From Candidatus Heimdallarchaeota archaeon (GTDB taxonomy: Archaea; Asgardarchaeota; Heimdallarchaeia; Hodarchaeales; Hodarchaeaceae), in NCBI GenBank assembly GCA_048881705.1, contig JBHLSH010000079.1:1-17640 (forward strand): a stretch of DNA of 17,640 nt. The letters are read 5' to 3'. Numbering within the stretch: the stretch's first letter is position 1; each line of letters opens with the position of its first letter. The notes under the pieces are model-generated. The model did not search any database. It had not been told where the DNA came from and saw nothing but the letters and a program-made list of their open reading frames with translations. The translations under genes and the position numbers were made by a program. Shown here in pieces: positions 1-16,887 of the stretch.

Positions 1-227
1 TTTGTTACCAACATCTCCAAATGCGGCGCCAGCAGCTCCTCATCAATGATGACTGTATCTCGAGTAATATCATAGCCAAGGTAGTATCCTTCATCGAGTA
101 CAATAGTATTGATTTCTACAAAGGGGAGATTTAGGAGCTGGGTAAGTCTTTCTGCTACCGTGGTTTTTCCTGTACCAGTGACACCAGTTATATACACTCG
201 TAATGGGGCCGAGATTCGAAATTCCAC
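1..227 (-). CDS. Partial adenylate kinase-like NMP kinase, AK6/Fap7/hCINAP type (runs off the window's left edge)
   Basis: Manual translation of the minus strand from GTG at 227 gives MEFRISAPLRVYITGVTGTGKTTVAERLTQLLNLPFVEINTIVLDEGYYLGYDITRDTVIIDEELL. It has a P-loop (GxxGxGKTT) and an AK6-like RDTxIID segment. Not in the supplied ORF track. An alternative TTG start lies at 242. Confidence 0.75.
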   Translation of the reverse strand, partial: MEFRISAPLRVYITGVTGTGKTTVAERLTQLLNLPFVEINTIVLDEGYYLGYDITRDTVIIDEELLAPHLEMLVT

Positions 228-334
228 CGTTTCGTTATTCAAGGTAGGCCTGTAAAAATCCTTTAACTTTAAATTTTTCTTTGAAATTGGGGGCATAGGA
301 TAATTCCAAAACGAAGATTGCAGTTAGAAGACAT

Positions 335-2830
335 ATGGTCGCCATAGTATCCATTTTCGCAGAAAAACCATCAATCGCGCGCGCATTGGTCCGTGGTTTT
401 TCAATTGTATATAAATTAAAGTTCAAGGGGACAAAAGGCAAGACTAAGTACAATTATGTATATAAAGCACCTATTTCCAACGGACAAATAATTTTTAAGA
501 TTGGAAGCGACGAATACCGCCTTTCCGAGGACGATCAACTTACCATCACCAGTGTCACGGGCCATGTCCTTCAATATGAATACCCCCCGCCATATGACAA
601 GGAAAGTAATTGGCATAATTCAGACCCACTTGATCTAGTGGAGTTAGAACCAATCGAAATCCCCATTCGGGAATCGATGGTCACCCATGTCCAAGAAGTA
701 GGGCGGTATTCTGATGTCATTATAATTGCAACCGATTGGGATGGCCACGGGGAATCAATAGGTCGACAGGTCGTAGATATCGTCACGGGGATAAATAAAA
801 GAATCAAACATGGTCGTATGCAGTTCACTAGTACTGGTCCAATGGCCCTTAAGCGGGCCTTTGAAAATCAAGGTACGCTGGACTGGGATTGGGTAAGACA
901 GGTTGATTCTCTTCGAAAGCAGGATCTTCGCATGGGTTCATCACTCACTCGTTTCCTTACGGTTGGGGTCCAGAATCAAGGCATTCATAATACTCTGGTT
1001 TCATATGGACCTTGTCAAACATCAGTATTATGGTTGATCACACATCGGTATTTAGAAAACAAAGAGTTTAACCCTCAAACATTCTGGCGATTAACTCTTA
1101 AGCTCCAGCTCTCTGACAAGGATTCATTGTTTCTGGATTGGAAGGGTAATCCTTCATACGATGAAAAGGAAATAGATTCCCTTCTATCGGAACTCGGGCA
1201 AGTGCAGCAATGTCTAGTTACGGATTACAACGAGGAAATCTCGCTTATAAAACGTCCGGTCCCCTTAGATACAGACACTCTCGAGTCTCAATGTGCACAG
1301 TTCCTTAAAATCAGCCCGAAAAGAGTTGCGGACATTGCAGAGAGGCTCTATAATAATGGATTTATTACCTACCCTAGAACTGAGAGTTCATATTACCTTC
1401 AAAAAGACTTAACCCCGCTTGCTAATAAGTTTGTTGACCATCCGGAATTTGGTAAGGTTGCCCAAGAGGCCATTGCCATTGGTGGAACCACAAATGCAAG
1501 TAAAGGGCGATTCACAAAGGACCATGAACCAATTCGGCCTGTTAAGGCAGTTACACGCAGTGAAATTGCAAAATCCTTTTCCAAAACCCCCAGTATGATC
1601 AATCATGCATGGGCTATCTATGTGTACGTTGTTTGGCGTTTTTTGGCTACCGTCCATATGGATGCCAAGGTAACCAATCAATACCTCCTCGTAACGGCGG
1701 CTTCGGAAGAATTCATTGCAAAAGGCCAAAAATTATTGGAGCCTGGGTTCTTAAAGTTCTATAAATACAAAACTATCTCCATCCAAGGACTTCCACAATT
1801 ACAGAAAGGGACTAATTTTCCCTTTGAGACCTTTAAGCACCATGGATTTACCGCACCTCCCCAATTATGGAGTGAGGCCCGTCTTATTACGAAAATGGCG
1901 TCATTAAACCTAGGAACCGATGCCACTCGGTCATCACATATAGACACTGTACAAAAACGGCAATATACTGTTGTACAGGGTCCCCAGCGAAGCTTGGTTC
2001 CAACATCGCTCGGACTAGCACTCTATCAGATTTTAACTCAAAATGCAGGGGAATTAATCCTCCCCGAAATCCGTGGTCGAGTTGAAACCTGGACACAACA
2101 AATTCGAACCCATGAAAAAACTCCCGAAGATGTTGACAAGCTGGTTATGGGCGTTACAACTCGTGGTATGCAACAATTGAAAGCGAATCAAGAAGAAATC
2201 TTCCCCACACTAGCAAGAAGCATTGAATCAATGACTGGGATCGGAAAACATCTAGGAATATGCCCTGAATGTCAAGGGAGCCTGGTTTTACACCAAGGAA
2301 AGGCAGGAACTCGATTCCTACGGTGTTCCAACCCATTATGTGAGACTAGCCTTCCTCTTCCCAAAAAAGGAACCCTTGAAACTATTACAGATGAACTCTG
2401 CCGAATCTGTAATGGGATCCCACTCCTTGTCTCCACGAGATATCATAAATGGATCTTATGTCCATATTGTTGGTCTACCAAAGGAACAGAAGATAAACCC
2501 TGGTTTTGTAGTGAATGTGATCGTATTGATTGTCCTATCTCAGGATCCTGGGAATTTACTCCCCCCGAACAATATCTTGGCGATTGCCCGCATTGCGGTC
2601 ATGAGGTGCAGGTCCGGATTGAACAAGATTCATCTCCAGTAACCCAAGTCATGTGTAGTAATTGTAAACATACCTGGAAGGCGCCTCATCCTCGTAAAGG
2701 AACCAATCTTTCTGTCGGAGCACCTTGTACAAGATGTGGCCGGCAGACATTGTCTATTTTCAAACGAGGAAAAAAGCCGTATCGATTATGCGTGTTTTGT
2801 TCCATCTTCTTCTTTGAAACAGATGACTGA
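335..2830 (+). CDS. top3: Type IA DNA topoisomerase (topoisomerase III, eukaryotic TOP3B-like) with Cys-rich Zn-finger C-terminal domain
   Basis: Toprim AEKPS (E10), TSVTGH, IATDWDGHGE, SYGPCQT, active-site GFITY346PRTE, LGTDAT, and 19 Cys in CxxC-type motifs from residue 643 to about 822. Confidence 0.95.
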   Translation: MVAIVSIFAEKPSIARALVRGFSIVYKLKFKGTKGKTKYNYVYKAPISNGQIIFKIGSDEYRLSEDDQLTITSVTGHVLQYEYPPPYDKESNWHNSDPLDLVELEPIEIPIRESMVTHVQEVGRYSDVIIIATDWDGHGESIGRQVVDIVTGINKRIKHGRMQFTSTGPMALKRAFENQGTLDWDWVRQVDSLRKQDLRMGSSLTRFLTVGVQNQGIHNTLVSYGPCQTSVLWLITHRYLENKEFNPQTFWRLTLKLQLSDKDSLFLDWKGNPSYDEKEIDSLLSELGQVQQCLVTDYNEEISLIKRPVPLDTDTLESQCAQFLKISPKRVADIAERLYNNGFITYPRTESSYYLQKDLTPLANKFVDHPEFGKVAQEAIAIGGTTNASKGRFTKDHEPIRPVKAVTRSEIAKSFSKTPSMINHAWAIYVYVVWRFLATVHMDAKVTNQYLLVTAASEEFIAKGQKLLEPGFLKFYKYKTISIQGLPQLQKGTNFPFETFKHHGFTAPPQLWSEARLITKMASLNLGTDATRSSHIDTVQKRQYTVVQGPQRSLVPTSLGLALYQILTQNAGELILPEIRGRVETWTQQIRTHEKTPEDVDKLVMGVTTRGMQQLKANQEEIFPTLARSIESMTGIGKHLGICPECQGSLVLHQGKAGTRFLRCSNPLCETSLPLPKKGTLETITDELCRICNGIPLLVSTRYHKWILCPYCWSTKGTEDKPWFCSECDRIDCPISGSWEFTPPEQYLGDCPHCGHEVQVRIEQDSSPVTQVMCSNCKHTWKAPHPRKGTNLSVGAPCTRCGRQTLSIFKRGKKPYRLCVFCSIFFFETDD

Positions 2831-2843
2831 GGCTACTTTGTCC

Positions 2844-2850
2844 TTTTTTT
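2844..2850 (+). terminator. Probable oligo-T terminator of top3
   Basis: T7 tract 13 nt after the TGA stop. Confidence 0.4.
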
Positions 2851-2963
2851 CTATACCCAATAACTTATTAGTTTTCATCTCAGGAATTTTTGATATAAAC
2901 CCCCTGTCCTCATTGTTGAAGAATAATCCCGAAATAGGCAAATAGAACTTGGTTGATGAGTAG

Positions 2964-5321
2964 ATGAGTTCTGATGATGTTTTTGGGCGTGACCCCGCTC
3001 CTAGTTCAATACGATACCTTATTTTACTCAGCGCCTTTACCAGTCTGTTAACTGCCGTTTCATTTATACCTTCAATGGTGGGGACGAATTCTCAAGAAAC
3101 TAACTTCTTCCAAACCGCAATTCCTGGATTTTTATTCTTTTCAGTTATCTCTATTCCAGAATGGTTTTTTTTACGCCGCTCTCGTAAGATGTTAGGACCG
3201 TATGGGCTTGCTTTTGCCGTGGAGATTGTGAGAAGTATAGCTCTGCAGATAGCTGGGTTCTATTATGTTCAACAAGTCGAGACTGCCTCATCCACAGCAT
3301 TTTCGCTTCTCCAAGTCACCTCCTTACTTACTCTCGCCCTGTTGGTTGGAACTAAGGTCGCCCGTTCCAGATTAGAGGAACTTGCTGAACGGGATGTCAC
3401 CCGAAATATATTGAATCTTCTCCCCACCATCCTCGTATTACTCCTGTTTTTAGGCACATATCTCACAGAGATCGCTGGATTAAACACCCCTCGGCAGCAG
3501 AACCTATTTCCTGATTATACGGATAAAGAAATCGATTGGTCTATGTTCAACACGCCAACATGGGACGCTACCTACTTATTAGAAAACCTTCTCGACCAAT
3601 TCACAGCGGGTTTAAGTGCCCCAGATACCATACTCTTCAATGTTACCAGTGATCAAGCAGACCCACAAGGTCCTACCACTTATTGGCGGCTTGGAACTCT
3701 GGAGGCATATGAATATACCAATAAGCCTCCATATTCGACAGATTGGAACCCCACTCAGAAAGTCAAACGGATTTTGTCTACGGGAGCCCCTAGTTCAAGT
3801 GCTTATTCGCAACTTGTGGATCCTGCTGATAGAACTGCGAAATTCACTGTCCTTCTCCCACTTGACCATAATTCATCCCTTGGAGATGTCACCGTCAATC
3901 CAAATTATCAAAATTATCTGCCTACCACATGGAATGGGCAAAAGGGTTCATACATTGACTCTAATTCATTTCGTTTTTTTGATAGCATTGGAAATTCGCT
4001 GAGTGCGACCACCAAGAATGCACGGGAAGTATTCCCGCTCTCCCATTCCGATGATTTGCTTGGAGTCGACGCCAATCTTTTGCTTGATACTACATCCAAT
4101 GAAACGGGGCTTTTTACTTATGATATTGACTACGAGAAGGTCGACGTTCAATCGGCTGCTGCATTCTCCTTGACCAGATCTGAGAATGACTATTTGCAGG
4201 CTTTAGGTAGTGATGCGGCCACGTGGAGTGCCATCAAAACTCTGTATCTTCAACTCCCGAATGAAACAGGCACTTTACCGACTCAGATGACAAATCTCCC
4301 TTATATCAGTTCGGCATCTCAGCGATATCAGGATTGGGCTCCTAAAGTATACGAAAATGCCACCAATCTGAACGATTCAGGGCTTTCGGTTTTCGGACAA
4401 GCCTACAAAAACATGCTGAGCTTCGAAAACTTTACTTTTGATGTGAATATGTGGTTGGGAAGACAAATCGGTTTCGCTCCTGGAGTGGCAAACGCACATC
4501 CCGCCCAATACGAGGATTTCAATGAATGGTTTTTCCGTCGGCCTCACGATGGTACTGAAGGTGGAGTTTCTATTCACTTCGCTGGATCATACGCCATCAT
4601 TAATCGGCTGCAAGGGATTCCTACCAGAATGGTTATCGGGTATTTGGGAGGGAACGATTCCATTGATTATTATCCTTACCGTGCCGTCTCGGCGCGTTTT
4701 CTCCATGCCTGGGCCGAAGTGCTAATTCCCATGCTAGATCCCATCAATGGGTATCGAGCGGAATGGGTAAGTTTTGACCCTTTGTTGTCCTATCTAGCAA
4801 GTCAATATGGATTGACTCCCCCTACTGATATCGTGCCAACTTCCTCGGTAGGCCAGTCGATTACTATCCGATCCGATTATGATTTGGAAAATCAGGGGCT
4901 TTTCCAGGCAGGTCTCGACCACCAAGACATGAAAACCAACGGTAGTGGGGACTTCATTTTTGGACGAGTGATCACAAATTACACAGCGAGTAACAGTTTA
5001 GCTACCCCCTACACTCTTGCCAATGGTGTCGGGGTCAACGTGTCTGTCAGGCTTATTGCGACTCCCTCTGCTGTAATGTGGATACCTCTACAGGGAGCAA
5101 ACTTTAGTTTTTATGCTGGCATTTCAGGAGAAAATAGTAGTGGTATATGGTTAGGGAACAGTTCGACAGACAGCCGCGGCGTGGCCACTCTTCTGTTCAC
5201 AGTCGATATCACACAGCTAGGAATACGGACAATCTATTTTTATGTTGAGGTTAACCTAGGAGCTTCTGGCGGCGTCCGAAAAGCTGCCATCTCCTGGCCT
5301 TATGTCACGTCATTCTTCTAA
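2964..5321 (+). CDS. Membrane-anchored transglutaminase-like (TgpA/DUF3488-type) extracellular glycoprotein with Ser at the catalytic Cys position
   Basis: About 5 N-terminal hydrophobic helices; YWRLGTLEAY motif; core GVSIHFA...RLQGIPTRMVIGYLGG...HAWAEV...WVSFDP; 14 N-x-S/T sequons, all after the TM region; beta-rich C-terminus. Confidence 0.85.
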   Translation: MSSDDVFGRDPAPSSIRYLILLSAFTSLLTAVSFIPSMVGTNSQETNFFQTAIPGFLFFSVISIPEWFFLRRSRKMLGPYGLAFAVEIVRSIALQIAGFYYVQQVETASSTAFSLLQVTSLLTLALLVGTKVARSRLEELAERDVTRNILNLLPTILVLLLFLGTYLTEIAGLNTPRQQNLFPDYTDKEIDWSMFNTPTWDATYLLENLLDQFTAGLSAPDTILFNVTSDQADPQGPTTYWRLGTLEAYEYTNKPPYSTDWNPTQKVKRILSTGAPSSSAYSQLVDPADRTAKFTVLLPLDHNSSLGDVTVNPNYQNYLPTTWNGQKGSYIDSNSFRFFDSIGNSLSATTKNAREVFPLSHSDDLLGVDANLLLDTTSNETGLFTYDIDYEKVDVQSAAAFSLTRSENDYLQALGSDAATWSAIKTLYLQLPNETGTLPTQMTNLPYISSASQRYQDWAPKVYENATNLNDSGLSVFGQAYKNMLSFENFTFDVNMWLGRQIGFAPGVANAHPAQYEDFNEWFFRRPHDGTEGGVSIHFAGSYAIINRLQGIPTRMVIGYLGGNDSIDYYPYRAVSARFLHAWAEVLIPMLDPINGYRAEWVSFDPLLSYLASQYGLTPPTDIVPTSSVGQSITIRSDYDLENQGLFQAGLDHQDMKTNGSGDFIFGRVITNYTASNSLATPYTLANGVGVNVSVRLIATPSAVMWIPLQGANFSFYAGISGENSSGIWLGNSSTDSRGVATLLFTVDITQLGIRTIYFYVEVNLGASGGVRKAAISWPYVTSFF

Positions 5322-5628
5322 TAACGTCCGGGTTCCCCACAAAAAAGTGCTCTATAATCAAAATCGATCAGATAATTTAGATATCCTCGTACTTCCTCTT
5401 TGTAGCAAATTCTACTCAGTACCTTTAAACTGGGGCAAAAAAACCCAAAGGAGAGAGAGACTTCCAGTTTTGCGAAGAAAGTATTTAATAACTCAGCTTG
5501 AAGACACATCAAAAGATAAAAAAAAAAGCTAAATCTCGGGCTGGTTGTCCCTTAATTCAACCAATACTCAAGTCTATGAAGAAAGATCAAGAGAAGCAAA
5601 CTAGAGAAATTCGGAGAATGATTTGGAA

Positions 5629-5973
5629 ATGTCTAAAGATAAGATTTATGGTTATGGCATATTTTTTGTAACGTTAATACTAATGATCCTCTATGTCATC
5701 TATCTGCCAGTACAATATTATTTTACCAATATAGGAGGTCCTTTTCTGGGATTTGATCTTACCCAATTTTTTACGGACTTCCCACTCAAGATAGGGTGGC
5801 AGGATGCTGTTATTTGGCCCGTATTTCTAGCTACAATGATGATTGGCTTTATTATCGCCTGGATTGGATACACTATGGCCACAACTCCTCCTCCAGAACC
5901 CATTGATCTTGATGATCTTAATTTGGATGAAGAAATCGAAGAAGAAGCCGAAGACGAAGACAACGACGATTAA
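5629..5973 (+). CDS. Small 2-TM membrane protein with acidic tail, DPM2-like
   Basis: Two hydrophobic helices (DKIYGYGIFFVTLILMILY and AVIWPVFLATMMIGFIIAWIGYTM), then TTPPPEP and a D/E-rich tail. ATG at 5629; the ORF track uses TTG at 5623. Confidence 0.7.
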   Translation: MSKDKIYGYGIFFVTLILMILYVIYLPVQYYFTNIGGPFLGFDLTQFFTDFPLKIGWQDAVIWPVFLATMMIGFIIAWIGYTMATTPPPEPIDLDDLNLDEEIEEEAEDEDNDD

Positions 5974-6060
5974 GAAATCAAACCACCTAATTCGCTTCCC
6001 TTTTTCTTAGTTTATTTGAGGTGAGAGGGGAAGAAAAAAGGATTCTTGACCGTACCCCGT

Positions 6061-7086
6061 TCATGTCATATCTGGTGGGAGCCCCAAGAGGTTGTCTAAG
6101 AAATCGGGGAAGTAAATCGCGATCCCAAACAATGCCACAATAATCAATCCGGTAAAAAAGATCTGTTTATCAAAGAAGAGCCGCTCAGCCTTTCTGCCAA
6201 CCACATTATTGCTAGAAACTAAGAATAGGAAACGGAAAATTCCGAGAGAAAACAGCGGTAATGCTGCGACAAGAAACACGGTCTCGTTCGCATGACGTTC
6301 CACGAGATAAATGAATACTGCTAACAATTCAATTGCGGTTATTGTGGCTAAACTTTGATTTAGGAGCTCGGGGGTATATAATTTGAATACCTCTTTATGT
6401 TGCCGTGCGGATTCTCCCAATACAGCCAAATCGCCCTTACGTTTAGCTAATGATAACAACATGGCGGTGATGAAACAAAGAATAATCAACCATGGCGAAA
6501 CCGAAACCGATATCAGTACGGCTCCCGCCATGGCTCGCCAGACATAATTCACGGACAGCGTTATAACATCGGCAAAGACAATCTCTTTTAAACGCAAATT
6601 ATAAAGTTGACTGGTAATGAATAAAGCGCCCAATACTAGAAGAAAGGCGATTTTTGATTCTAAGACAATAGATGCTTCCTGATTTGGTGTTGTAGGTAAT
6701 AAAAGAATTTCTTCGGTAGTTTGAGGGATAAGAATTAGGACTCCACTTAAAACAATTAAAAGGATGACTCCAATGGTTAATCCCTGAAGTGGACTTATTT
6801 TTCCTGAGGGAAAAGGACGTTTGGCCTTTTCAGGGTGATACCGATCCTTTTCTCTATCCCGAAAGTCATTGACTAGATAGCCAAGGCTGGAAACAAGGCA
6901 CAACGCTAGAAAGGCAAGTCCGATAGGAATCCAGAGGTCAGCACGAAACAGATTTCCAGAGAAAAATATCCCAAAAAAAGCTAGGACGTTCTTATAATAT
7001 TGATGCGGTCGAAGTAAAATCACGATCGCACGCAGACGTTCCGGCAGGGAGAGAGTTTCTTTGTAAGAGGAGGTATTAGTAGCCAT
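6061..7086 (-). CDS. UbiA prenyltransferase family protein, decaprenyl-phosphate phosphoribosyltransferase (DPPR synthase)-like
   Basis: LRPHQYYKN, YLVNDFRDREKDRYHPEKAKRPFPSG (NDxxDxxxD...HPxKxxRP) and LAKRKGDL motifs, with multiple TM helices. Confidence 0.85.
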   Translation of the reverse strand: MATNTSSYKETLSLPERLRAIVILLRPHQYYKNVLAFFGIFFSGNLFRADLWIPIGLAFLALCLVSSLGYLVNDFRDREKDRYHPEKAKRPFPSGKISPLQGLTIGVILLIVLSGVLILIPQTTEEILLLPTTPNQEASIVLESKIAFLLVLGALFITSQLYNLRLKEIVFADVITLSVNYVWRAMAGAVLISVSVSPWLIILCFITAMLLSLAKRKGDLAVLGESARQHKEVFKLYTPELLNQSLATITAIELLAVFIYLVERHANETVFLVAALPLFSLGIFRFLFLVSSNNVVGRKAERLFFDKQIFFTGLIIVALFGIAIYFPDFLDNLLGLPPDMT

Positions 7087-7117
7087 GGAATTATCACTAT
7101 CCTGAAGAATGATGATT

Positions 7118-7486
7118 TTAGACGTATTGCATTATTTCAAATAGAACCATTCCTGGATCTAGGTCATCACCAATTGCAGCAAGAACATTTTCTTTATCTA
7201 GCGCGAGTACTACCAGATAACGATTAATCCGTCCTTCCTTTGCCACAAATCCTCGTTGATTCAAGATTACCATTTCATAAATTTCGTGAACATCCTTGTG
7301 GGCTAGACGGATAGGCATTGCTAGATTTGACTGCAAAACAACACGAAAATTTGATTTCAGAAGTGCGCTGGCAATCTCCTCATCCCCGCTCTGATCTACC
7401 ATGCCATCTGCTAGATGGAGGATTACCGTCAACTGGAGGGCTTTTTGAATTCGTGTGAGAGGGAACCGCGATTTTTCGACTGGCAT
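7118..7486 (-). CDS. Probable Roadblock/LC7 (MglB-like) domain protein, 122 aa
   Basis: From ATG 7486 (MPVEKSRF): strand-turn VILHLADGMV, helix EEIASALLKS, and C-terminal YLVVLALDKENVLAAIGDDLDPGMVLFEI match the roadblock pattern as recalled. The ORF-track extension to 7654 is judged non-coding. Confidence 0.5.
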   Translation of the reverse strand: MPVEKSRFPLTRIQKALQLTVILHLADGMVDQSGDEEIASALLKSNFRVVLQSNLAMPIRLAHKDVHEIYEMVILNQRGFVAKEGRINRYLVVLALDKENVLAAIGDDLDPGMVLFEIMQYV

Positions 7487-7653
7487 TGTTCTCTCGAGGA
7501 GGTTTGTTCTACCCTTAAATGAAAGATGAGTACTCAGCCAAAGAAAGAAAAGGATAAGTAAATTACGCCAAAAGTGATAAAAGGGGCGTGTTCTAGCGCC
7601 TAGTGTCCAAAAACCCAGTAAAAACCTCCTTGAAATCGGAATAAGGATCAACA

Positions 7654-8148
7654 ATGACCCTCAAGACCTGTTCACAAAGTTTAGGTAAGTTAATTCCACT
7701 AATCATCCTTGCTAGCTTGGTGCTAAATCCTTATCCCGCCCTGATTACATCTGGAAACCTAGAAGTGCAAGATCCCCCTCATTCTCTCTATGGTGACAAG
7801 TTTAATATAATCAAATTACCACTAGTGATTGGGCAAGAAAATACCACCGATACAACAAACACTACAACTCCCACAACCACATCTACGACTGGAGATACCA
7901 ATACCACAACAGTCGCAGGTAGACCGGGGCCATGGAATCCTATCCTTGACCCTGGTCTGTATTTTCCGCTAGCCCTCGTGTTTAGCATCTTGGGGATATT
8001 TTCTGCAATCTGGTTAATCTTTTTTGTTGAAACAAGTCAAGATCGGACGATTAGAGAACGGTTAATCGGCAGTACCATCCGATTGGTGACTATGAGTATT
8101 TTGCTCGGGCTTGCTATCCATTTTTGGCTGTTGTTCGAACCCATTTGA
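7654..8148 (+). CDS. Hypothetical membrane protein: signal/TM helix, Thr-rich linker, two C-terminal TM helices
   Basis: Hydrophobic N-terminus, then ENTTDTTNTTTPTTTSTTGDTNTTT with three NTT sequons, then two hydrophobic helices. Confidence 0.7.
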   Translation: MTLKTCSQSLGKLIPLIILASLVLNPYPALITSGNLEVQDPPHSLYGDKFNIIKLPLVIGQENTTDTTNTTTPTTTSTTGDTNTTTVAGRPGPWNPILDPGLYFPLALVFSILGIFSAIWLIFFVETSQDRTIRERLIGSTIRLVTMSILLGLAIHFWLLFEPI

Positions 8149-8247
8149 GTCAGATTGCAAAACCACAGTAGGTACTCCCGCCCACAGCGTTTCACATATT
8201 CCCTCTTCCCTTTTGTTCCATTTCTTCTTAAGGGTTTAAAAGCAGGG

Positions 8248-8262
8248 GAAAAGCTTTTTTAA
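8248..8262 (+). promoter_or_regulatory. BRE/TATA-like promoter of the 8291 gene (leaderless spacing)
   Basis: GAAAAGCTTTTTTAA about 30 nt upstream of ATG 8291. Confidence 0.5.
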
Positions 8263-8290
8263 TCGGGTTACGGAAAAAAAACAAACAGAG

Positions 8291-8563
8291 ATGACACGGC
8301 TCTTAGACCATTTCCTTAGAGAGGAAGAGTCGTATTGGTCAATCCAGACTCTCCTTCATCGTGTCCTAAAGGGGATGTGGGTGCTGTTGTACGGTAGCCG
8401 GGTGATTGCGTTTTCAGAGGAGAGAGAGGAAATAGTTCGACATTTCTCTGAGTATATCGAAAAGGGTGACCCGCACGAATGCCTACCGGGGGCAATTTGC
8501 GTGCAAGTGGGACATGAAAAGCCCTTCTATCGAATTCCGGTGGATGACAATACGGCCGAGTAA
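8291..8563 (+). CDS. Small hypothetical protein, DUF5678-like
   Basis: KGMWVLLYGSRVIAFSEEREEIV...ICVQVGHE resembles the recalled GkwVai...kvva.g.d pattern; promoter at the expected distance. Confidence 0.45.
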   Translation: MTRLLDHFLREEESYWSIQTLLHRVLKGMWVLLYGSRVIAFSEEREEIVRHFSEYIEKGDPHECLPGAICVQVGHEKPFYRIPVDDNTAE

Positions 8564-8572
8564 CTAACCAGA

Positions 8573-10402
8573 TCATTCTACAGTTACTGTTTTGGCGAGA
8601 TTCTTGGGCTTGTCAGGATCATAACCTCGGCTGGTAGCCGCGTAATAACTGAGCATCTGAAGGGGGATTACATCTAGGATAGGACGGAGAAACGTAAGAG
8701 AGGGATTGGGTACCACAAAGGAATAATCAGACCGTTCGATGATCGGATGGTTGGGTTCTGCTACCGATATGATATGTCCACCACGTGCACGCATCTCTTC
8801 AGCGTTGCTTATGATTTTTTTAGCGGTCCAATCATCAGGTGCTATCAATATCACGGGGAAGTTTGGTTCTACAATGGCAATTGGGCCATGTTTTGATTCC
8901 CCCGCAGGAAAAGCTTCAGCGTGGATGTAAGAGATTTCTTTAAGTTTTAGTGCTCCCTCCATGGCTACTGGAAGACTCGCCCCACGTGCTAGAAAGTACG
9001 CAGAATGCTGATTGGAGATCTTTCCTGCAAGTTCTTTCGCCTTAAATTCATTTTGAGTGATAACCGTTCGAGTAAGCTTTGAGATTTCTTGCAAGAGATA
9101 ATCATGGTCTTGGATTAATTCTTTAGAGGTTAGGAACCCTAGTTCATGCTTAACTTGGAGCCCAAGCCGGCCAAGCAGAGCAATTTGGGCCGTGTGGGTT
9201 TTGGTAGCTGCAACCCCGATCTCTGGCCCCGCCTTGGTATAGAGCGAGACATGACTCATTCGGGGGATAGATGAGTCAATAACATTCGCCACAGTAATAA
9301 CCGAGGCTCCGGCTTTACGTGCAGCACTAACCGCCTTCATCACATCAAGTGTTTCTCCTGACTGACTAATTGCCAAGATTAGACTGTCTTCATCCATAAA
9401 AGAGGAGTATGTTTCGTATTCTGAAGCAATTAAGGGGAAGATAGGCTTTTTCTTCAACATTGGTTGGAGATAATGATATCCAGACAACCCTGCATGATAA
9501 CTTGTACCGCATGCTAGTATTGCGATCTGATCTGCCTCCAAAATCATTTTCGCAGCGCTTTCAACCATTTTCTGGTCTATAAATAAAGTGTTTTTCAGCG
9601 CAAGGGGTTGTTCATGAATTTCTTTAAGCATATAGTGTGGATACCCACTTTTTTGAGCACTTTCAGCGGTCCATGTGACAATCACAGGTTTTGGTTGAAT
9701 AATATATCCGCCTTTTTCAATATAAACCGTTTGGGGTGTGATAGTAGCGATTTCTCCGTTTTTTAAGATAATAGCTCTTTTGGTGTATTCTAAAAACGCG
9801 GGAATGTCGCTCGCTGCAAACTTCGTGTCATCCTTGACTCCAATCACCAAGGGACTGTCCTTTCGGGCGAGAAAAATCGTTTCGGGATCATCGCGGGTAA
9901 ACCAGACAAGTGCATAGGTACCTTCAATTTGAGCTAGCACATTTTTAAAGGCGGAAACGGACGTTTTTTTGCCAGGATCGTCCATTGCCTCTTCAAGTAG
10001 ATGACAAATCACTTCTGTATCGGTATCTGAAACAAATTTATGGCCTCGATTGAGAAGACCCTTTTTCAACTTCATATAATTCTCGATAATCCCATTATGT
10101 ACCAGGACAATCTTTCCTGTGCAATCAGAGTGCGGATGGGCGTTAATTTGGTTTGGCGGCCCGTGAGTAGCCCATCGTGTATGACCAATTCCGACTTGCC
10201 CCGTAAGGTTCGTAAATGACATACGCTTACTTACCTGATCAATGGTACCTTTGTCTTTTAAGGTTTCGATCTGCCCATCTCCGTTCAACACAGAAACCCC
10301 CACACTGTCATATCCTCGATATTCTAAGCGTTTTAGACCAGCTGTGATCATTGGGGAAACATTTTTGCGAGCACTGGTTGTAATAGCGATAATCCCACAC
10401 AT
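8573..10402 (-). CDS. glmS: Glutamine--fructose-6-phosphate transaminase (isomerizing)
   Basis: N-terminal MCGII, LEYRGYDS, GHTRWATHG, HNGIIEN, SQSGET, ALKLKE, ESKHGP and C-terminal PKNLAKTVTVE; 609 aa. Confidence 0.98.
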   Translation of the reverse strand: MCGIIAITTSARKNVSPMITAGLKRLEYRGYDSVGVSVLNGDGQIETLKDKGTIDQVSKRMSFTNLTGQVGIGHTRWATHGPPNQINAHPHSDCTGKIVLVHNGIIENYMKLKKGLLNRGHKFVSDTDTEVICHLLEEAMDDPGKKTSVSAFKNVLAQIEGTYALVWFTRDDPETIFLARKDSPLVIGVKDDTKFAASDIPAFLEYTKRAIILKNGEIATITPQTVYIEKGGYIIQPKPVIVTWTAESAQKSGYPHYMLKEIHEQPLALKNTLFIDQKMVESAAKMILEADQIAILACGTSYHAGLSGYHYLQPMLKKKPIFPLIASEYETYSSFMDEDSLILAISQSGETLDVMKAVSAARKAGASVITVANVIDSSIPRMSHVSLYTKAGPEIGVAATKTHTAQIALLGRLGLQVKHELGFLTSKELIQDHDYLLQEISKLTRTVITQNEFKAKELAGKISNQHSAYFLARGASLPVAMEGALKLKEISYIHAEAFPAGESKHGPIAIVEPNFPVILIAPDDWTAKKIISNAEEMRARGGHIISVAEPNHPIIERSDYSFVVPNPSLTFLRPILDVIPLQMLSYYAATSRGYDPDKPKNLAKTVTVE

Positions 10403-10781
10403 TGAAGATACTTCCTTAAGATTCTATTACCTGAAAATCCCGGTTTTCCCTGTCACTCCACGAGTTTTAAAGCTAGAGTAAGGAAACGAAAGTAGGAAAC
10501 GAGTAGTTCTAGCTATAAAGGGGGCTTTTAAATGTGTTACCTTAAAGGTTTCCTGAATGTGTCATACCATTTTTTTAAGGAGATATGGAAACAGACAGTT
10601 TTACGGTCAAGGTAAGTCATTTTTTTCTTTTTACTCGCATAGATGTGTTTTTAAGGAGAAACAATGAGAACAGAAGGTAGATCCTCATATTGACTACTCT
10701 AGCCCCATTTGAAGTAGTAAGATCGATGAGGCATTAATCTGACCTGAACGATCAAATAGCACTATTTTGGTAGTTAATCCG

Positions 10782-11714
10782 ATGTTACGTCATTCCCGTA
10801 AAATTGATCCGAAAATCGCAAGACTTCTGGCACATGATCTCCGTTGGCAAATCATGATGTTGCTTTCAGATGATGAAACAAATTATGCTAAACGTATTTC
10901 AGAAGAACTCAACATATCAGAGTCGAAAGTTCATTATCACATGGCCAAACTTCGTGAAGCGGGACTCATTATTCCTATCGGTATCAAGCCTGGAAAAAGG
11001 AGAGGGAGAGCGAAGCTCTTCAAGCCCGTAGCTGCCGAATACTATTTATCCCTAGACTCTCGTAAAAGAAGGGGCCCCGCTGATACTGTTTTTGATAAGA
11101 TTTTCGCTGGACGATTCGTGACGAATGAGGAATTTGATGCAAGAATCATTGTGGGTTCAGCAGAAGCGCATGGACGGTATGATGCAATTTCACGAGATGG
11201 ATATCTGGTTTCAGAACTCTGTGGGTATCTGGGATGCCATCTTACCAGGTGGAGGCGTGATAACCAACTTTTTCCTTATTTTCTCTGTACTGACGTAGAT
11301 TATGAAAAACACCACCAAAAAGAACGGACAAATCTCATTATCCTCGGAGGACACATCACCAATACTCTCACTGCAGAATACAACTCGACTTTAGAAAACA
11401 AGTTTGGGATCTGTTTTGTTGAAAACCGGATTATGGTAGGGAAAACTGCTTATGCAAATCCAGAAAATGGATTAATTGCGCTGTTTCGTCGCCCCGATAG
11501 TAAACGACATTGGGTTTTGATTCTGGCAGGGGTACGGGGCATCGGAACAAAAGCAACGCTTTTTGCATTGACATCGGATTGTATTAAGGTACTGGAAGAT
11601 GCTCCTGAATTCGTAAGCGTGATTAAAGGGCAGAGCAGGAACGGGAGAATGGTTTCAGGGGTAGAGAAATTAGATAGCAGGATCAATTCCCACGGCTCAG
11701 AACTGAATTATTAA
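10782..11714 (+). CDS. ArsR-type winged-HTH transcriptional regulator fused to a C-terminal domain of unknown function
   Basis: LAHDLRWQIMMLL...AKRISEELNISESKVHYHMAKLREAGLI is a winged HTH. The C-terminal NLIILGGHITN resembles the NLILxGGPxxN motif. ATG 10782 is preferred over TTG 10767. Confidence 0.8.
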   Translation: MLRHSRKIDPKIARLLAHDLRWQIMMLLSDDETNYAKRISEELNISESKVHYHMAKLREAGLIIPIGIKPGKRRGRAKLFKPVAAEYYLSLDSRKRRGPADTVFDKIFAGRFVTNEEFDARIIVGSAEAHGRYDAISRDGYLVSELCGYLGCHLTRWRRDNQLFPYFLCTDVDYEKHHQKERTNLIILGGHITNTLTAEYNSTLENKFGICFVENRIMVGKTAYANPENGLIALFRRPDSKRHWVLILAGVRGIGTKATLFALTSDCIKVLEDAPEFVSVIKGQSRNGRMVSGVEKLDSRINSHGSELNY

Positions 11715-11775
11715 GTAATTAGGGGATTCCTTTTGACCACTCTTGTATTAAATTGAGGACAGGTAGCGACGAATC

Positions 11776-12477
11776 TTGGCTGAAACCCAACGCGTCATAA
11801 CGCAGGCAATCCAACAAGGAAGAAAGGTACTTACTATCAAAGAATCCAAAGTTATACTTGTGTACGAAGGTTTTCCCATTAATCCGACCGGATTTGGAAA
11901 AACCCTAGAAGAGATTCTTACCGAAGCAAAAAGAATCGGTTTTCCCCTCGTTCTTAAGGTTAGTTCCCCAGATATTGTCCACAAATCGGATGTTGGGGGA
12001 GTTATTACGGGAATAATGGATGTTTTGGATCTCCAGGAGAAGTTTGAAGGACTAGAGGAAACACTCAGACAGAAGGCTCCTTCGGCTCACATCGAAGGGT
12101 ATGTTCTCGAAAAAATGGAAACGGGGATTGAACTTTTAGTAGGATCCGCCCAGGATCCCATGTTCGGATCAATCTTGTCTTTTGGGCTAGGTGGGATCTT
12201 CGTTGAGGTCTTTAAGGATGTTGTGTTTCGGTTGATCCCGATAACTCCTGAGGATGCAGTTGAAATGCTTTCTGAGATCAAAGCGGCGCCACTATTGGAT
12301 GGAGTGCGAGGACAACCCCCTGTTGATAAGCAAGCTCTTGTAGAGTTATTGTTGCAGACCTCTCGATTTATCGAATCTCACCCAGAAATTGAAGAACTAG
12401 ACCTTAATCCAGTTTTTGCCACGGCCAAAGGGGTTTCGGTTGTTGATGCACGAATTATCCTGAAATTGGCTCAATAA
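11776..12477 (+). CDS. acdB: Acetate--CoA ligase (ADP-forming) beta subunit, stand-alone ATP-grasp
   Basis: IGFPLVLKVSSPDIVHKSDVGGV, DPMFG...FGLGGIFVEVFKDV and ELDLNP...VVDARI motifs; TTG start. Confidence 0.92.
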   Translation: MAETQRVITQAIQQGRKVLTIKESKVILVYEGFPINPTGFGKTLEEILTEAKRIGFPLVLKVSSPDIVHKSDVGGVITGIMDVLDLQEKFEGLEETLRQKAPSAHIEGYVLEKMETGIELLVGSAQDPMFGSILSFGLGGIFVEVFKDVVFRLIPITPEDAVEMLSEIKAAPLLDGVRGQPPVDKQALVELLLQTSRFIESHPEIEELDLNPVFATAKGVSVVDARIILKLAQ

Positions 12478-12901
12478 CCAGACCACGCCACAGAACGAGA
12501 AGACAAGAGAGTGTGATTGTCGCCCCAAGTGCTGAAAAAATCAAAGCTAGAAAAAAGAAAACTTCATACCCAGAAAACGATATAACGAGTTGACTCAACA
12601 AGACTGGTACCAAGGCTGCCCCTCCAAGCATGACCAAAAATCGAAGGAGAGTTTCTAAACGCTGGAATGAATCTAACCATTGACCACGATTTAAAACAAC
12701 AACAATTGGCAAACTTAGTGTAACACCAACAAGGAACGGGATTCCCACAAGTGATAATGCTTCTTTCCCCAAAAACATACTTGCGAGGGAAAGCATAACC
12801 AATTCAGAAAAAGAAAAAGAAAGGGGGATAATTACCAATTCAAATCGTTGAAACGTCGTCAATTGAGGCATTTCTTGATGCTCAGGATGGTATTGTGTCA
12901 T
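12455..12901 (-). CDS. Hypothetical 4-TM membrane protein
   Basis: 148 aa with four hydrophobic segments; fills an otherwise empty gap and overlaps the acdB 3' end by 23 nt. Confidence 0.6.
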   Translation of the reverse strand: MTQYHPEHQEMPQLTTFQRFELVIIPLSFSFSELVMLSLASMFLGKEALSLVGIPFLVGVTLSLPIVVVLNRGQWLDSFQRLETLLRFLVMLGGAALVPVLLSQLVISFSGYEVFFFLALIFSALGATITLSCLLVLWRGLVIEPISG

Positions 12902-13086
12902 TCTATCTTTTTACTCTGCGTTTCATTTGAGTTTATCTGTTGTGAAGGGGGAAGAACCGGGAAATTGATTCATGTAGGATGAACCCTCAAAATTTATAGA
13001 GTATGATAAACTGCGAAATAAACGCAAAAAATCCCTCTCATATAAAGATTATTTACTTAAATCCCTTTATTTCAGATATAAAAGAA

Positions 13087-13160
13087 GCGCCGATAATCTA
13101 GTCCGGTTAGGATCTCAGCCTTCCAAGCTGATTACCCGAGTTCGAATCTCGGTCGGCGCA
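13087..13160 (+). tRNA. tRNA-Gly: tRNA-Gly(UCC), intronless, CCA not encoded
   Basis: Acceptor GCGCCGA/TCGGCGC plus A73; anticodon arm TCAGC-CT TCC AA-GCTGA (anticodon 13122-13124); T arm CCGAG-TTCGAAT-CTCGG. Confidence 0.97.
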
Positions 13161-13167
13161 TCTGCCC

Positions 13168-13173
13168 TTTTTT
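13168..13173 (+). terminator. Oligo-T terminator of tRNA-Gly
   Basis: T6 tract 7 nt after the discriminator base. Confidence 0.5.
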
Positions 13174-13177
13174 ATTA

Positions 13178-14272
13178 CTAGTTAATCTTATAACGAAGTA
13201 TAGCGCAAATACCACCAAAACTCTGGATTTTGCGCCCTTCTTCTGTTTGGGGACTGATGATTTCGACTCGCGTGCCCGTCTTTTCTGCTAGTTCTCCTAG
13301 TTCCAATATGAGGCTAGTATCAAGGCCACTTGAGAGAAGAAGGGTATCCACCGCTCCCATTCTCAGGTTTTCACGGACTTCTTTCTCACCATAGTTGGCT
13401 TTGTTATCGATTAAAGCTTGTGTGAACTGATGTACGAGTTCCTTCTCCTCAATGATAGCTACACCTGCTAAAATATCTGTGGAGCTTGCGACCAGCTCAT
13501 TAATCCCTGATTTATCCCCTCCATACCCCAAGTCTTTGGTTCCAACAATCTTATCTTTCAATCGAGGATCAAAATACTCCACGATTTGGTCTTTTATCTG
13601 GCCTGGGCCTCCAAGGATCACCCCTTTTAGCTCTTCATCAGCATTTTCAATAAAAAACTCCTTCATTTCATCAGCAACACGTTTCAAATATCGCTGAATT
13701 GCTTCCTCACGCAATCTTGCATAACGCACGCTGCTCTGCCCTCCTTTGCGGTGTTTTTTGGCCGCACCACTTCGTGTACTCTTGATAATCTGTACATTAT
13801 CACCTTTCAAGGTAGCAATTGTGGCTTTGGCACTATCAATGGCCAGTAGAGCATATTTGTCTTTTTCGACAAGTAAATTTAGTATATGCTCAACATGAAA
13901 CCTATTATCACATACATAGAGTTTTCGAGAGATTGGTTCTGCCAGTTGGTCAAACACAAAAGATTCTAGCTTGTATTTGTTACTGGTTCCAGTCACCCCT
14001 GAAAAAATGGCTAACCCCGAATCGGGAGCTGAATTGCCGTAGAGCTTAAGTTTTCCAATCACATTTTTTAACGCAGATATGACATTCTTTTGTGTAAATT
14101 TACTGCGAATATTTGTTGCTGTCCCAATTTCATCAGACAACTCCTGAACAAAGTCCGCTATTTTGCGATTTGGGGGCACATATAGCGAAATAAGACAGGT
14201 ACTCCCATCTGGAGATTCTTTTTCTTGTAACTCGGCTAGTTGTTTCTCTATTTTATATTGACGATAACTCAT
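13178..14272 (-). CDS. prf1: Peptide chain release factor 1 (aRF1)
   Basis: LISLYVPP, GTATNIRS (NIKS position), YVCDNRF (YxCxxxF), KHRKGGQS (GGQ), and C-terminal GAVDTLL...SFGGICAILRY. Confidence 0.96.
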   Translation of the reverse strand: MSYRQYKIEKQLAELQEKESPDGSTCLISLYVPPNRKIADFVQELSDEIGTATNIRSKFTQKNVISALKNVIGKLKLYGNSAPDSGLAIFSGVTGTSNKYKLESFVFDQLAEPISRKLYVCDNRFHVEHILNLLVEKDKYALLAIDSAKATIATLKGDNVQIIKSTRSGAAKKHRKGGQSSVRYARLREEAIQRYLKRVADEMKEFFIENADEELKGVILGGPGQIKDQIVEYFDPRLKDKIVGTKDLGYGGDKSGINELVASSTDILAGVAIIEEKELVHQFTQALIDNKANYGEKEVRENLRMGAVDTLLLSSGLDTSLILELGELAEKTGTRVEIISPQTEEGRKIQSFGGICAILRYKIN

Positions 14273-14366
14273 AGGAACTTCAGCCTCGTTCTATATTCTA
14301 GTGGATATATTGGGACAGGTCGTCTGTCAATTGAATTTCCCGAAAAGATTCTTTTTTGAATCGCTA

Positions 14367-15353
14367 CTAGTGATCTCGTTCTGCTCGATAAGAATGTAAA
14401 AGTGCCCAGAATCTCTGATAGAAATCCATTAGCACTTTTAATGTCAAATAGTTCCAATCACAGATCGGCGAGTATTCTACAATGTCTAAAGCGAGAAGAG
14501 AAACCATGGGGGTATCCTCGAATGCCTTAACCAACTGAGCAAGTATCCTGAATAATTCAGAAGATGATTTCTCAATGGTTTTCTTCTTTTTAGCGGAAAA
14601 TCCACTTAAACTAGGGAAGTCGAATAATTCACCTATCCATTCTATATTGCTATTGGCCTCTTTTTTTGCTTCTAATAATTGGTCTAAATTCAAAGCATGC
14701 CCTATGATCCTGTTTCGGTGCCAATAATTGGCATAACCCATGAATGGAGGCTGTCCGACAGCAAAATAATCTAAATCGATAGTTACATATGTCTTTTTGC
14801 CTGACAACCAACTTGTAAACTGTGGGTCCTCAATAAGGGTGATAAAGGATGAAACCAGAAATTTCAAGGCACGTTGGGCCATCCTACGATCTGAGGATGC
14901 CTCGGCCCATCCACCAATTACAGCAGTTCGTTTTGATAGTTCATCAGTTAACCAGTTGCCATGGACTGCCTCTAGAGGGCCTGCTAGATCGAAATGGGCA
15001 TCAAATGAGATTATGGCAAGATCATTTCCAACATCGGAGAGATAATTTTGCGCAATGTAACGTGAAGGGGCGTGTGAAGGAGATAGGTTAATGAACCGTC
15101 TCTGATCATCCCAGAGAGGAGGAGAAATCTTTTCAAGATCAGTATAATTTCGTGTACCCCGCATTTTCGTATGGGGAAGCTCCTTAAGTACCGTAGATAA
15201 GTTTTTTTGAAACGATGTATTGATAAAACCAGATAAGTCTAGATTTGGGTTCCTATTTTTTAATGACTCAAGTTTAACTGCAGTCCAATACTCCTCAGCC
15301 CAAAAAACTGCGGTTCCAAACTTTTTAGTTTGTTTATTGGCCGGATATTCCAT
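14367..15353 (-). CDS. Divergent ureohydrolase (arginase/agmatinase superfamily)
   Basis: Metal-ligand motifs SPSH (GGDH position), DAHFD, VHG, TIDLD and DIVEYSP. Confidence 0.75.
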   Translation of the reverse strand: MEYPANKQTKKFGTAVFWAEEYWTAVKLESLKNRNPNLDLSGFINTSFQKNLSTVLKELPHTKMRGTRNYTDLEKISPPLWDDQRRFINLSPSHAPSRYIAQNYLSDVGNDLAIISFDAHFDLAGPLEAVHGNWLTDELSKRTAVIGGWAEASSDRRMAQRALKFLVSSFITLIEDPQFTSWLSGKKTYVTIDLDYFAVGQPPFMGYANYWHRNRIIGHALNLDQLLEAKKEANSNIEWIGELFDFPSLSGFSAKKKKTIEKSSSELFRILAQLVKAFEDTPMVSLLALDIVEYSPICDWNYLTLKVLMDFYQRFWALLHSYRAERDH

Positions 15354-15423
15354 TTGTACTCCTAAGGCCTTCCTAGGTGATATCCACCATATTATTCACG
15401 GATTTTGGCCGGGAACGGAGCCC

Positions 15424-16113
15424 CTAGCCCGTCACTGGGTTTTGAATAACGGTCCCCACACTCTTTCCTTGAATCGCTTCTCGAATCTTGTCGACTTCTT
15501 TGGGACAAATCACAATTCGAATATTGGATCGCTCACAGATTTTGGCCGCAATTAGCGTGAACGGGGCGTTAGACCCAGCACCTAATGATAAGGGTGAGAC
15601 AATTTCGTAAAATTCACGATAAGTCAAAATGTCATACTTTTTGGCATCGCTAAACTCCCGGGGATCCCTATCATATATACCATCCACGTTAGTAACATTG
15701 ATGAGCATATTTGAACCCACTAGATCGGCAAGAACGGCAGTATCCTCATCTGTCTTGACCGCTGGCAAAAATCCGCCTGCCAAACCAACATCGTAAGTCT
15801 GTAGCTGCTCGGTCACCTCCGTCAGAGTTGTTGGTAATATCACAGAACAATACCCCTTAAAGTAGTATGACAGCAGCCGTGCATTCAACCATGTGGCAGC
15901 AATTGCCATTGTATCCCTTTCACCTTCAGTTAATTTCTTGGGGAGCCCCGCAATGTATTGTCGAGCAACTTTTCCCCCGCCACAGACCACAACGAATTTT
16001 GACTCGTGAAAAAAACTTTTGATCATATCAGTAAACTGCTGAAGGAACTGGGTATCAATTTCACCAGGATTGATAACCGACCCACCTAAAGAAATGGAAA
16101 CCACGGGTTTCAT
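15424..16113 (-). CDS. pyrH: UMP kinase, archaeal type
   Basis: SLGGS, VCGGGKVARQYI, KTDEDTAVLA and TNVDGIYDRDP motifs. Confidence 0.95.
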   Translation of the reverse strand: MKPVVSISLGGSVINPGEIDTQFLQQFTDMIKSFFHESKFVVVCGGGKVARQYIAGLPKKLTEGERDTMAIAATWLNARLLSYYFKGYCSVILPTTLTEVTEQLQTYDVGLAGGFLPAVKTDEDTAVLADLVGSNMLINVTNVDGIYDRDPREFSDAKKYDILTYREFYEIVSPLSLGAGSNAPFTLIAAKICERSNIRIVICPKEVDKIREAIQGKSVGTVIQNPVTG

Positions 16114-16163
16114 TGTGCTATCAACTCATCCCGTTATCAACGATGACAAGGTAGTCACCTGCA

Positions 16164-16172
16164 CTTATAAAG
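16164..16172 (-). promoter_or_regulatory. TATA-like element upstream of pyrH
   Basis: Minus strand CTTTATAAG, preceded by ACAAATTT, about 50 nt upstream of the ATG. Confidence 0.4.
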
Positions 16173-16239
16173 AAATTTGTGAAGGTTTATCAAGATCTAC
16201 ACCTGAATTCACACGGTAATCGAAAGAAGGAGAGATTAA

Positions 16240-16372
16240 TGCCGCGGGCGTGATTTGAACACGCGACAACCGGATTTCTATCGTTTTTTAGCTATTAAAC
16301 GACTTCAGTCCGGCGCTTACGGGAAATACACCAATTATATGGCGCGGTTCTCCCGGTCTAAGCTACCGCGGC
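16240..16372 (-). tRNA. tRNA-Phe: tRNA-Phe(GAA) with two introns: 22/23 (16349-16318, 32 nt) and 37/38 (16302-16276, 27 nt)
   Basis: Removing both introns gives a 74-nt cloverleaf: GCCGCGG TA GCTT AGACCGGGA GAGC G CCGGA CT GAA GA TCCGG TTGTC GCGTG TTCAAAT CACGC CCGCGGC A. Bulge-helix-bulge (BHB) motifs are present at both junctions. Confidence 0.92.
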
Positions 16373-16405
16373 TGTTTACTTAAATTCACACGTGTTAGAA
16401 CGGTA

Positions 16406-16594
16406 TTAGTCTATCCTTCGACGTCTGTTAAAATTCTTACGTTGCCACGAATAACGACGTAATTTTGGGCTAGGATACCCGCAATGTGCACAGCGATGTT
16501 TAGATTTATGATAACTTCGCTGACCACATCGTCTACACTGGATGTGAGTGCGTTTGCTCGTATGTCTGCCAAATGATGCTGTACCTTTGGTCAC
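16406..16594 (-). CDS. rpl37e: 50S ribosomal protein L37e
   Basis: MTKGTASFG, CRRC...CAHC zinc finger and LRRYSW; GTG start with AGGAGG Shine-Dalgarno at 16608-16603. Confidence 0.97.
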   Translation of the reverse strand: MTKGTASFGRHTSKRTHIQCRRCGQRSYHKSKHRCAHCGYPSPKLRRYSWQRKNFNRRRRID

Positions 16595-16861: not shown

Positions 16862-16887
16862 GCGAATTTCATATCCATAAGATTAAA

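Follow-up and report, generated by a model that had tools for sequence, protein, structure and literature searches.

Type IA topoisomerases cut one strand through a 5'-phosphotyrosine, pass a second strand and reseal the break. The archaeal members have long been called topoisomerase III (Topo III) and fall into several subgroups (PMC2647321). Two residues mark the Topo III subfamily, a Lys after the first Glu of the Toprim domain and a Pro after the catalytic Tyr (PMC10969213), and the Sulfolobus enzyme is a decatenase (PMC8185306, PMC10969213). In structures of the eukaryotic paralogue TOP3B, E9, D117, D119 and H387 hold the catalytic metal, K10, R338 and Y336 belong to the same active site, and E340, D386 and D511 hold a structural metal; the RNA competence of TOP3B is ascribed to conformational flexibility, with no motif that could be read from the sequence (PMC11743793). 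The RGG box of TOP3B promotes DNA and RNA activity as well as TDRD3 binding (PMC7587558). Here we analyzed a type IA topoisomerase gene on a 17,640-nucleotide stretch (the window) of a Candidatus Heimdallarchaeota archaeon of the order Hodarchaeales (assembly GCA_048881705.1, contig JBHLSH010000079.1, positions 1 to 17,640). Its product is very probably a housekeeping topoisomerase III of an archaeal subfamily with GPxQ and GTDAT motifs, within which eukaryotic TOP3 arose before the duplication into TOP3A and TOP3B.

The gene is a single open reading frame on the forward strand (335-2830, ATG to TGA) that encodes 831 amino acids, with neither internal stops nor introns. Pfam recognized Topoisom_bac (E=1e-85), Toprim and Zn_ribbon_Top1 in the protein. 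None of the NCBIfam models passed at its own cut-off: the top-scoring one was the archaeal PRK07220, below its cut-off, and TIGR01057 reached 234 bits against a cut-off of 458. The AlphaFold model is confident, with a predicted local distance difference test (pLDDT) score of 89.8, and its best Foldseek match is TOP3B, although the cores of TOP3B and TOP3A fit it equally well (template-modelling scores by target, TM, of 0.90 and 0.89). The top sequence match in the PDB is human TOP3B (9cah, E=5e-74), over residues 69-734 and into the zinc tail, followed by core-only TOP3B (6e-66), TOP3A (1e-61) and Sulfolobus Topo III (7e-33), a ranking that favours TOP3B because all TOP3A entries in the PDB are truncated.

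The topoisomerase is a native, intact Hodarchaeales gene. On this contig of a 3.96 Mb host genome, neighbouring genes pass the archaeal aRF1 and pyrH_arch cut-offs. The nearest homologues (40-94% identical) are mostly labelled Hodarchaeota/Hodarchaeales or Heimdallarchaeota, and the gene order kinase, topoisomerase, transglutaminase-like is conserved in about 20 Hodarchaeales genomes, single-contig chromosomes included. Eukaryotic contamination, a concern raised when the gene was first read from its letters alone, is ruled out by these observations together with the lack of introns.

The five motifs on which that sequence-only reading was based are all present in the protein, with TSVTGH starting at residue 72, SYGPCQTSVL at 223, LGTDATRSSHI at 526, LVPTSLGLAL at 554 and ELILPEIRGRVE at 573. 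The human TOP3B motifs that it had cited (SFGPCQTPTL, KPTNLGIVL and ELVLPTIRSAVE) are likewise seen in the alignment to 9cah. ITYPRTES at residue 344 gives Y346 as the catalytic Tyr, which aligns with Y336 of TOP3B (chain numbering +1). Chance can be dismissed as the source of these matches. All catalytic and metal residues of TOP3B are retained (E10, D134, D136, H397, K11, R348, Y346, E350, D396 and D529), as are both Topo III marks, K11 after the first Toprim Glu and P347 after the catalytic Tyr. Because D529 aligns with the structural-metal ligand D511 of TOP3B, the Asp of the GTDA motif is predicted to be a metal ligand. In ordinary archaeal TopA this position is Lys and the position of E350 is usually Asp or Ser, so the GTDA/E350 signature would have a mechanistic meaning shared by all GTD enzymes and by TOP3A and TOP3B alike.

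From the conserved residues and the TOP3B structures, single-stranded DNA would enter the groove and Y346 would attack the scissile phosphate, assisted by the catalytic Mg2+ (E10, D134, D136, H397), K11 and R348, to give a 5'-phosphotyrosine. The gate would then open for passage of a second strand, and the break would be resealed with the help of the second, structural metal (E350, D396, D529). The putative five-zinc tail may contribute nucleic-acid binding.

The sequence-only reading placed the enzyme with the TOP3B lineage specifically, and the motifs it cited turn out to be shared far more widely. Most TOP3A proteins read SYGPCQ. SYGPCQ together with GTDAT is found in Pyrobaculum, Vulcanisaeta, Caldivirga, Thermofilaceae, Culexarchaeia, Methanomethylicia and Nezhaarchaeales, while Borrarchaeales have S[FW]GPCQ and Wukongarchaeia SIGPVQ. 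The GPxQ/GTDAT subfamily has members in Hodarchaeales, Borrarchaeales, Wukongarchaeia, Thermoproteales, Thermofilales, Culexarchaeia/Methanomethylicia, Nezhaarchaeales and unclassified lineages. A type IA paralogue of Methanosarcinales, the deepest branch of the GPxQ clade, carries an intermediate signature (SIGPCQ with GTKAT); loci of this type are among L044-L063, L066, L070 and L092. When 356 Asgard genomes were scanned with a DNA pattern for SYGPCQ, matches came from Hodarchaeales only; the pattern is codon-restricted and misses the SFGPCQ, SWGPCQ and SIGPVQ variants. Mean core identity of the protein is 28.7% to TOP3B, 28.4% to TOP3A, 32% to Borrarchaeales, 31% to Wukongarchaeia and 30% to the GPCQ group of the TACK archaea (Thaumarchaeota, Aigarchaeota, Crenarchaeota and Korarchaeota). 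One TACK-type GPCQ/GTDAT gene (L062) lies on a 6 kb contig in a bin labelled Dehalococcoidia and is probably mis-binned.

Trees were built on 562 core columns with FastTree (246 rows), under LG+F+G4 (106 rows, with bacterial and reverse-gyrase outgroups) and under LG+C20 with posterior mean site frequencies (PMSF, 81 rows). Tree position and Pfam tails served to tell TOP3A rows from TOP3B rows, and human sequences were not among them. The set for the approximately unbiased (AU) test was taken without P0126, which has a long branch, and without the bacterial and reverse-gyrase outgroups. In all three trees TOP3A and TOP3B joined each other with the Hodarchaeales clade outside (Shimodaira-Hasegawa-like approximate likelihood ratio test, SH-aLRT, of 99 in both IQ-TREE runs). 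The Hodarchaeales clade itself (SH-aLRT 100 in the PMSF tree) lay in each tree inside a GPxQ clade, together with the eukaryotic enzymes and those of several archaeal groups. Ultrafast bootstrap (UFBoot) supports were read from a checkpoint of an unconverged PMSF run. The GPxQ clade has SH-aLRT 98 and UFBoot 100%, its GTD subclade 91 and 97%, and the UFBoot trees join TOP3A with TOP3B in 100% of cases and Hodarchaeales with TOP3B in 0%. The AU test under PMSF rejected Hodarchaeales with TOP3B (p=5e-5) and two variants of that grouping (p=0.013 and 0.015). The grouping was also rejected under LG (p=0.008). Orthology to TOP3A is ruled out by the AU test (PMSF, p=3e-4), and the protein has neither GRF fingers nor the CQF motif.

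These results leave it very improbable that the enzyme is an archaeal TOP3B orthologue, that the TOP3B type is older than eukaryotes and that the protein is specialised for RNA or R-loops. TOP3B is its top PDB and Foldseek match, tail included, and most of the first non-Asgard matches in the homologue search are TOP3B, but the truncated TOP3A entries bias the PDB search in this direction. At the 14 columns that separate TOP3A from TOP3B, the protein has the TOP3B residue six times and the TOP3A residue three times. T229, P328, Y354, D396 and G471, which make up five of those six TOP3B matches, are common in archaeal outgroups too, and so they are best read as retained ancestral states. Derived features of TOP3B, and one of the eukaryotic enzymes as a whole, are lacking: residue T531 is the state of TOP3A and archaea (GTDAT), whereas TOP3B has Ser (GTDAS), and the Toprim region reads ATDWD, unlike the WLDCD of both eukaryotic paralogues. 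Compared with human TOP3B (9CAH, 5GVE; PMC11743793), the protein shares the fold, all catalytic and structural-metal ligands and the S[YF]GPCQ and GTDA motifs, and differs in its identity of only about 27-29% and in its position outside the TOP3A and TOP3B clade. What stands of the original claim is that this is an Asgard type IA enzyme nearer to eukaryotic TOP3 than to the GRVQ-type TopA; its TOP3B-specific part fails, and the enzyme does not show that TOP3B predates eukaryotes. We regard it as an archaeal cousin of the ancestor of TOP3A and TOP3B and not as an archaeal TOP3B.

The C-terminal tail leads to the same conclusion. Its 19 Cys align with the five zinc sites of human TOP3B, of which three are resolved and two predicted, and from this alignment we predict one C4 ribbon, a seven-Cys two-zinc cluster and two more C4 ribbons, collinear with TOP3B. 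Since the same Cys pattern is common to protist TOP3A, Borrarchaeales and some GRVQ-type Asgard enzymes, the putative five-zinc tail is not diagnostic of TOP3B. At the second site, C689-R-I-C692 aligns with CPLD of TOP3B; where TOP3B has an Asp ligand (CPxD), this protein and TOP3A have Cys (CxxC, protist sequences included). The TOP3B-specific Zn_ribbon_TOP3B (PF23546) had no match at E<=1 in the tail, while a TOP3B control matched at 5e-18, and none of the 26 archaeal GPxQ members matched at E<=0.01. The tail scored 83 bits on a hidden Markov model (HMM) of TOP3A tails and 50 bits on one of TOP3B tails, a rough comparison between different HMMs. No RGG occurs in the protein, and the last 90 residues of 14 Hodarchaeales proteins hold only 0-2 RG. 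TOP3A (PDB 4CGY) resembles the protein as closely in the core as TOP3B does (28% identity), and unlike TOP3A the protein has no GRF or CCHC zinc fingers; the GRF finger (PF06839) is present in 26 of 42 TOP3A.

Which archaeal lineage is closest to the eukaryotic enzymes is less clear. In the best PMSF trees, Hodarchaeales and two unclassified groups together form the sister of eukaryotic TOP3 (UFBoot 52%, AU p=0.41), on an internal branch of only 0.02. These trees raise the possibility, which we consider doubtful, that the Hodarchaeales enzyme and its unclassified, possibly mobile-element relatives are the direct sister of all eukaryotic TOP3 and the best living model of the state before the duplication. 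The full predicted zinc tail, collinear with both TOP3B and protist TOP3A, would fit, as would the three structural-metal ligands, which are all kept here while Borrarchaeales, Wukongarchaeia and TACK members have Ala at the position of D396. Some phylogenomic studies also place eukaryotes as sister to Hodarchaeales, as discussed in PMC12680538. However, Borrarchaeales with Wukongarchaeia (p=0.53) and TACK (p=0.07) are not rejected as sisters, and an unclassified pair (P0212 and P0202) takes this place in 42% of the bootstrap trees. Hodarchaeales alone do so in 0% (AU p=0.09), and they share 11 of 20 eukaryote-typical core residues as against 14 of 20 in Borrarchaeales. Several archaeal lineages therefore remain candidates, and no single one is favoured decisively.

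A stronger version, in which the Hodarchaeales enzyme and these relatives are the closest archaeal sister and have kept a complete pre-duplication state (both metal sites, a five-zinc tail, no RMI1/TDRD3 cofactor and dual DNA/RNA activity), strikes us as unlikely. If it were true, the ancestral enzyme would already have acted on RNA and TOP3A would have lost this activity; the gene would also offer a single-gene marker tying eukaryotes to Hodarchaeales as well as a direct bench model of the ancestor.

The nearest relatives of the enzyme outside Hodarchaeales are P0127 (L015/L016) and P0125 (L142/L143; UFBoot 94%). Their contigs, of 160 kb and 22 kb, hold mostly unknown genes together with a PolB of 1391 aa (faint POL2_thumb), PCNA, TFIIB and an ERCC4-like gene, and may belong to large viruses of archaea or to extrachromosomal elements with a Top3 gene. 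P0212 (L014:9228-11171) and P0202 are unclassified tail-less GPCQ/GTDAT enzymes, and the L014 contig carries HMG-CoA reductase and ABC transporter genes.

We also considered whether the protein could be an ordinary archaeal TopA with convergent motifs, or the product of a eukaryote-to-archaeon transfer or a contaminant, and find this highly unlikely. The top NCBIfam score is that of an archaeal model, and an HMM of Hodarchaeales tails gives some ordinary archaeal TopA tails higher scores (up to 98 bits) than eukaryotic tails. The AU test nevertheless rejects a grouping with the GRVQ enzymes (p=0.015 under PMSF, 0.044 under LG), the branch lies outside eukaryotic TOP3 and not inside it, and the gene order is kept across Hodarchaeales. 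Membership of ordinary archaeal TopA is further ruled out by the lack of GRVQ/GTK motifs and by the score below the TIGR01057 cut-off. The protein shares both Topo III marks with Sulfolobus solfataricus Topo III, but it is only 21% identical to it (6K8N), reads GPCQ/GTDAT in place of GRVQ/GTK[SA]T, and has the acidic E350/D529 pair that ordinary archaeal TopA lack. Had the gene come from a stem eukaryote at a very early date, the present data could not tell this from shared descent.

The distribution of the gene fits a housekeeping function. All but one of the 21 other genomes of the genus carry it, as do both other genomes of the order, and it was not found in the 17 other Heimdallarchaeia sampled. 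In five genomes it is the sole type IA match (G010, a single 4.9 Mb contig that is 96% complete, and G008, G017, G004 and G016). No type IB topoisomerase gene was found in the host genome (G000) or in G010. Since nearly all Hodarchaeales genomes encode the Top3-like enzyme, and in five of them it stands alone, it appears to serve the order as its housekeeping type IA topoisomerase rather than as an accessory enzyme for RNA. In another Asgard family (f17; G050, G085, G091, G096, G123 and others; loci L140 and L141), 0 of 14 genomes (80-91% complete) had a type IA match and two of three tested had a type IB enzyme of 585-591 aa. In this family IB may have taken the place of IA, which would make it a second such lineage beside the Thaumarchaea (PMC2647321).

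The enzyme most likely unlinks hemicatenanes, precatenanes and recombination intermediates. In this it would probably act as a decatenase like S. solfataricus Topo III, since decatenation has been shown for the Sulfolobus enzyme. RNA topoisomerase activity has been reported for type IA enzymes of all three domains, human TOP3A being among the exceptions. It is therefore plausible that this enzyme too can pass RNA strands in vitro, as a trait common to Topo III; nothing in the protein indicates a TOP3B-like specialisation. The OB-fold (oligonucleotide/oligosaccharide-binding) partner of RMI1/TDRD3 type (PF08585) that the earlier reading suggested looking for was found in 0 of 22 genomes, a weak negative because no positive control matched. 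The Tudor domain (PF00567) was found in 0 of 5 genomes, again a weak negative, and the RecQ C-terminal (RQC) domain in 0 of 5 with controls working.

Several observations weigh against this interpretation of a housekeeping Topo III outside the eukaryotic paralogues. The UFBoot supports rest on the unconverged run, and the stem of the Hodarchaeales clade, at 0.8 substitutions per site, is long enough to leave the exact position of the clade soft. One variant, Hodarchaeales and the P0125/P0127 pair with TOP3B, is left unrejected under LG (p=0.08), although PMSF rejects it (p=0.013). The host genome also carries a second type IA gene, of GRVQ/GTKSS type (773 aa, contig C41, L001:1261-3582, reverse strand), and some division of labour between the two enzymes is therefore possible. 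This GRVQ-type copy is patchy within the genus and forms a long branch with other Asgard GRVQ enzymes. Finally, we found no biochemistry in the literature for any member of the GPxQ/GTDAT subfamily.

The broad link between Asgard and eukaryotic Top3 is already published. Feng et al. 2025 related one eukaryotic Top3 clade to non-canonical Asgard Top3 of the 'Heimdall clan' Sifarchaeia and Wukongarchaeia (PMC12680538, Extended Data Fig. 4f) and counted Top3 among the genes probably transferred around eukaryogenesis. Our trees agree with that conclusion, and our Borrarchaeales (Sifarchaeia) and Wukongarchaeia groups match its lineages. For Top3, the legend and main text of that paper name these two lineages and not Hodarchaeales, and its main text is without motif, tail or TOP3A/TOP3B analysis; our tree adds Thermoproteales, Culexarchaeia and Methanosarcinales relatives. 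A literature search retrieved no paper joining Asgard, topoisomerase III and TOP3B. The surprise is thus modest, and what the enzyme contributes is a way to tell which traits of the eukaryotic paralogues are old and which are new. GPCQT, the two-metal site and the predicted five-zinc tail, which resemble TOP3B, are ancestral. The later gains are WLDCD, GTDAS, the Asp of CPxD, the RGG box and the GRF fingers, and probably also the OB-fold cofactors. A GPxQ/GTDAT enzyme, for instance from Pyrobaculum or Hodarchaeales, bears on whether the common ancestor already acted as an RNA topoisomerase, an activity that TOP3A would then have lost.

Table 1. Features of the topoisomerase gene and its neighbours, in window coordinates; residue numbers are those of the 831-aa protein.
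Feature	Coordinates	Strand	Residues and remarks	Basis
Type IA topoisomerase (Topo III) gene	335..2830	+	Hodarchaeales GPCQ/GTDAT type	ORF, Pfam, NCBIfam, PDB matches, AlphaFold model
Toprim domain	353..829	+	7-165; E10, K11, D134, D136 (TOP3B E9, K10, D117, D119)	Pfam, alignment
Type IA core domains II-IV (PF01131)	890..2134	+	186-600	Pfam
SYGPCQTSVL	1001..1030	+	223-232; GPxQ in place of GRVQ, common to TOP3A, TOP3B and several archaeal lineages	
Active-site ITYPRTES	1364..1387	+	Y346 nucleophile; R348; E350 putative structural-metal ligand (TOP3B E340)	alignment
D396-H397	1520..1525	+	TOP3B D386 (structural metal) and H387 (catalytic metal)	alignment
LGTDATRSSHI	1910..1942	+	D529 (TOP3B D511, structural-metal ligand); T531	alignment
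Zinc tail	2261..2800	+	19 Cys (C643-C822); five predicted zinc sites	alignment to human TOP3B
Transglutaminase-like protein (PF01841)	2964-5321	+	785 aa	
Membrane protein, weak Ost5 match	7654-8148	+	164 aa	
aRF1	13178-14272	-	364 aa	
tRNA-like gene, read as tRNA-Phe(GAA)	16240-16372	-		by eye
Sm-like (LSM) protein	16622-16861	-	79 aa	
tRNA-like gene, read as tRNA-Glu(TTC)	~16888-17028	-		by eye

The flanking kinase and transglutaminase-like genes give no functional clue for the topoisomerase. The transglutaminase-like protein is membrane-anchored, and its gene lies directly 3' of the topoisomerase in most Hodarchaeales loci. Further along the window, the weak match to Ost5 (oligosaccharyltransferase subunit 5) has E=1.3e-4, below the cut-off, and this gene adjoins a UbiA-family gene and glmS. 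The aRF1 protein matches its 403-position model in two stretches, which, with its shorter length, suggests a shortened C-terminal domain. The two tRNA-like genes were missed by default ARAGORN and Rfam scans; each apparently has more than one intron, at non-canonical positions. A relaxed ARAGORN run finds both regions, but calls the first one Asn. The LSM gene (E=7.5e-21) sits between them.

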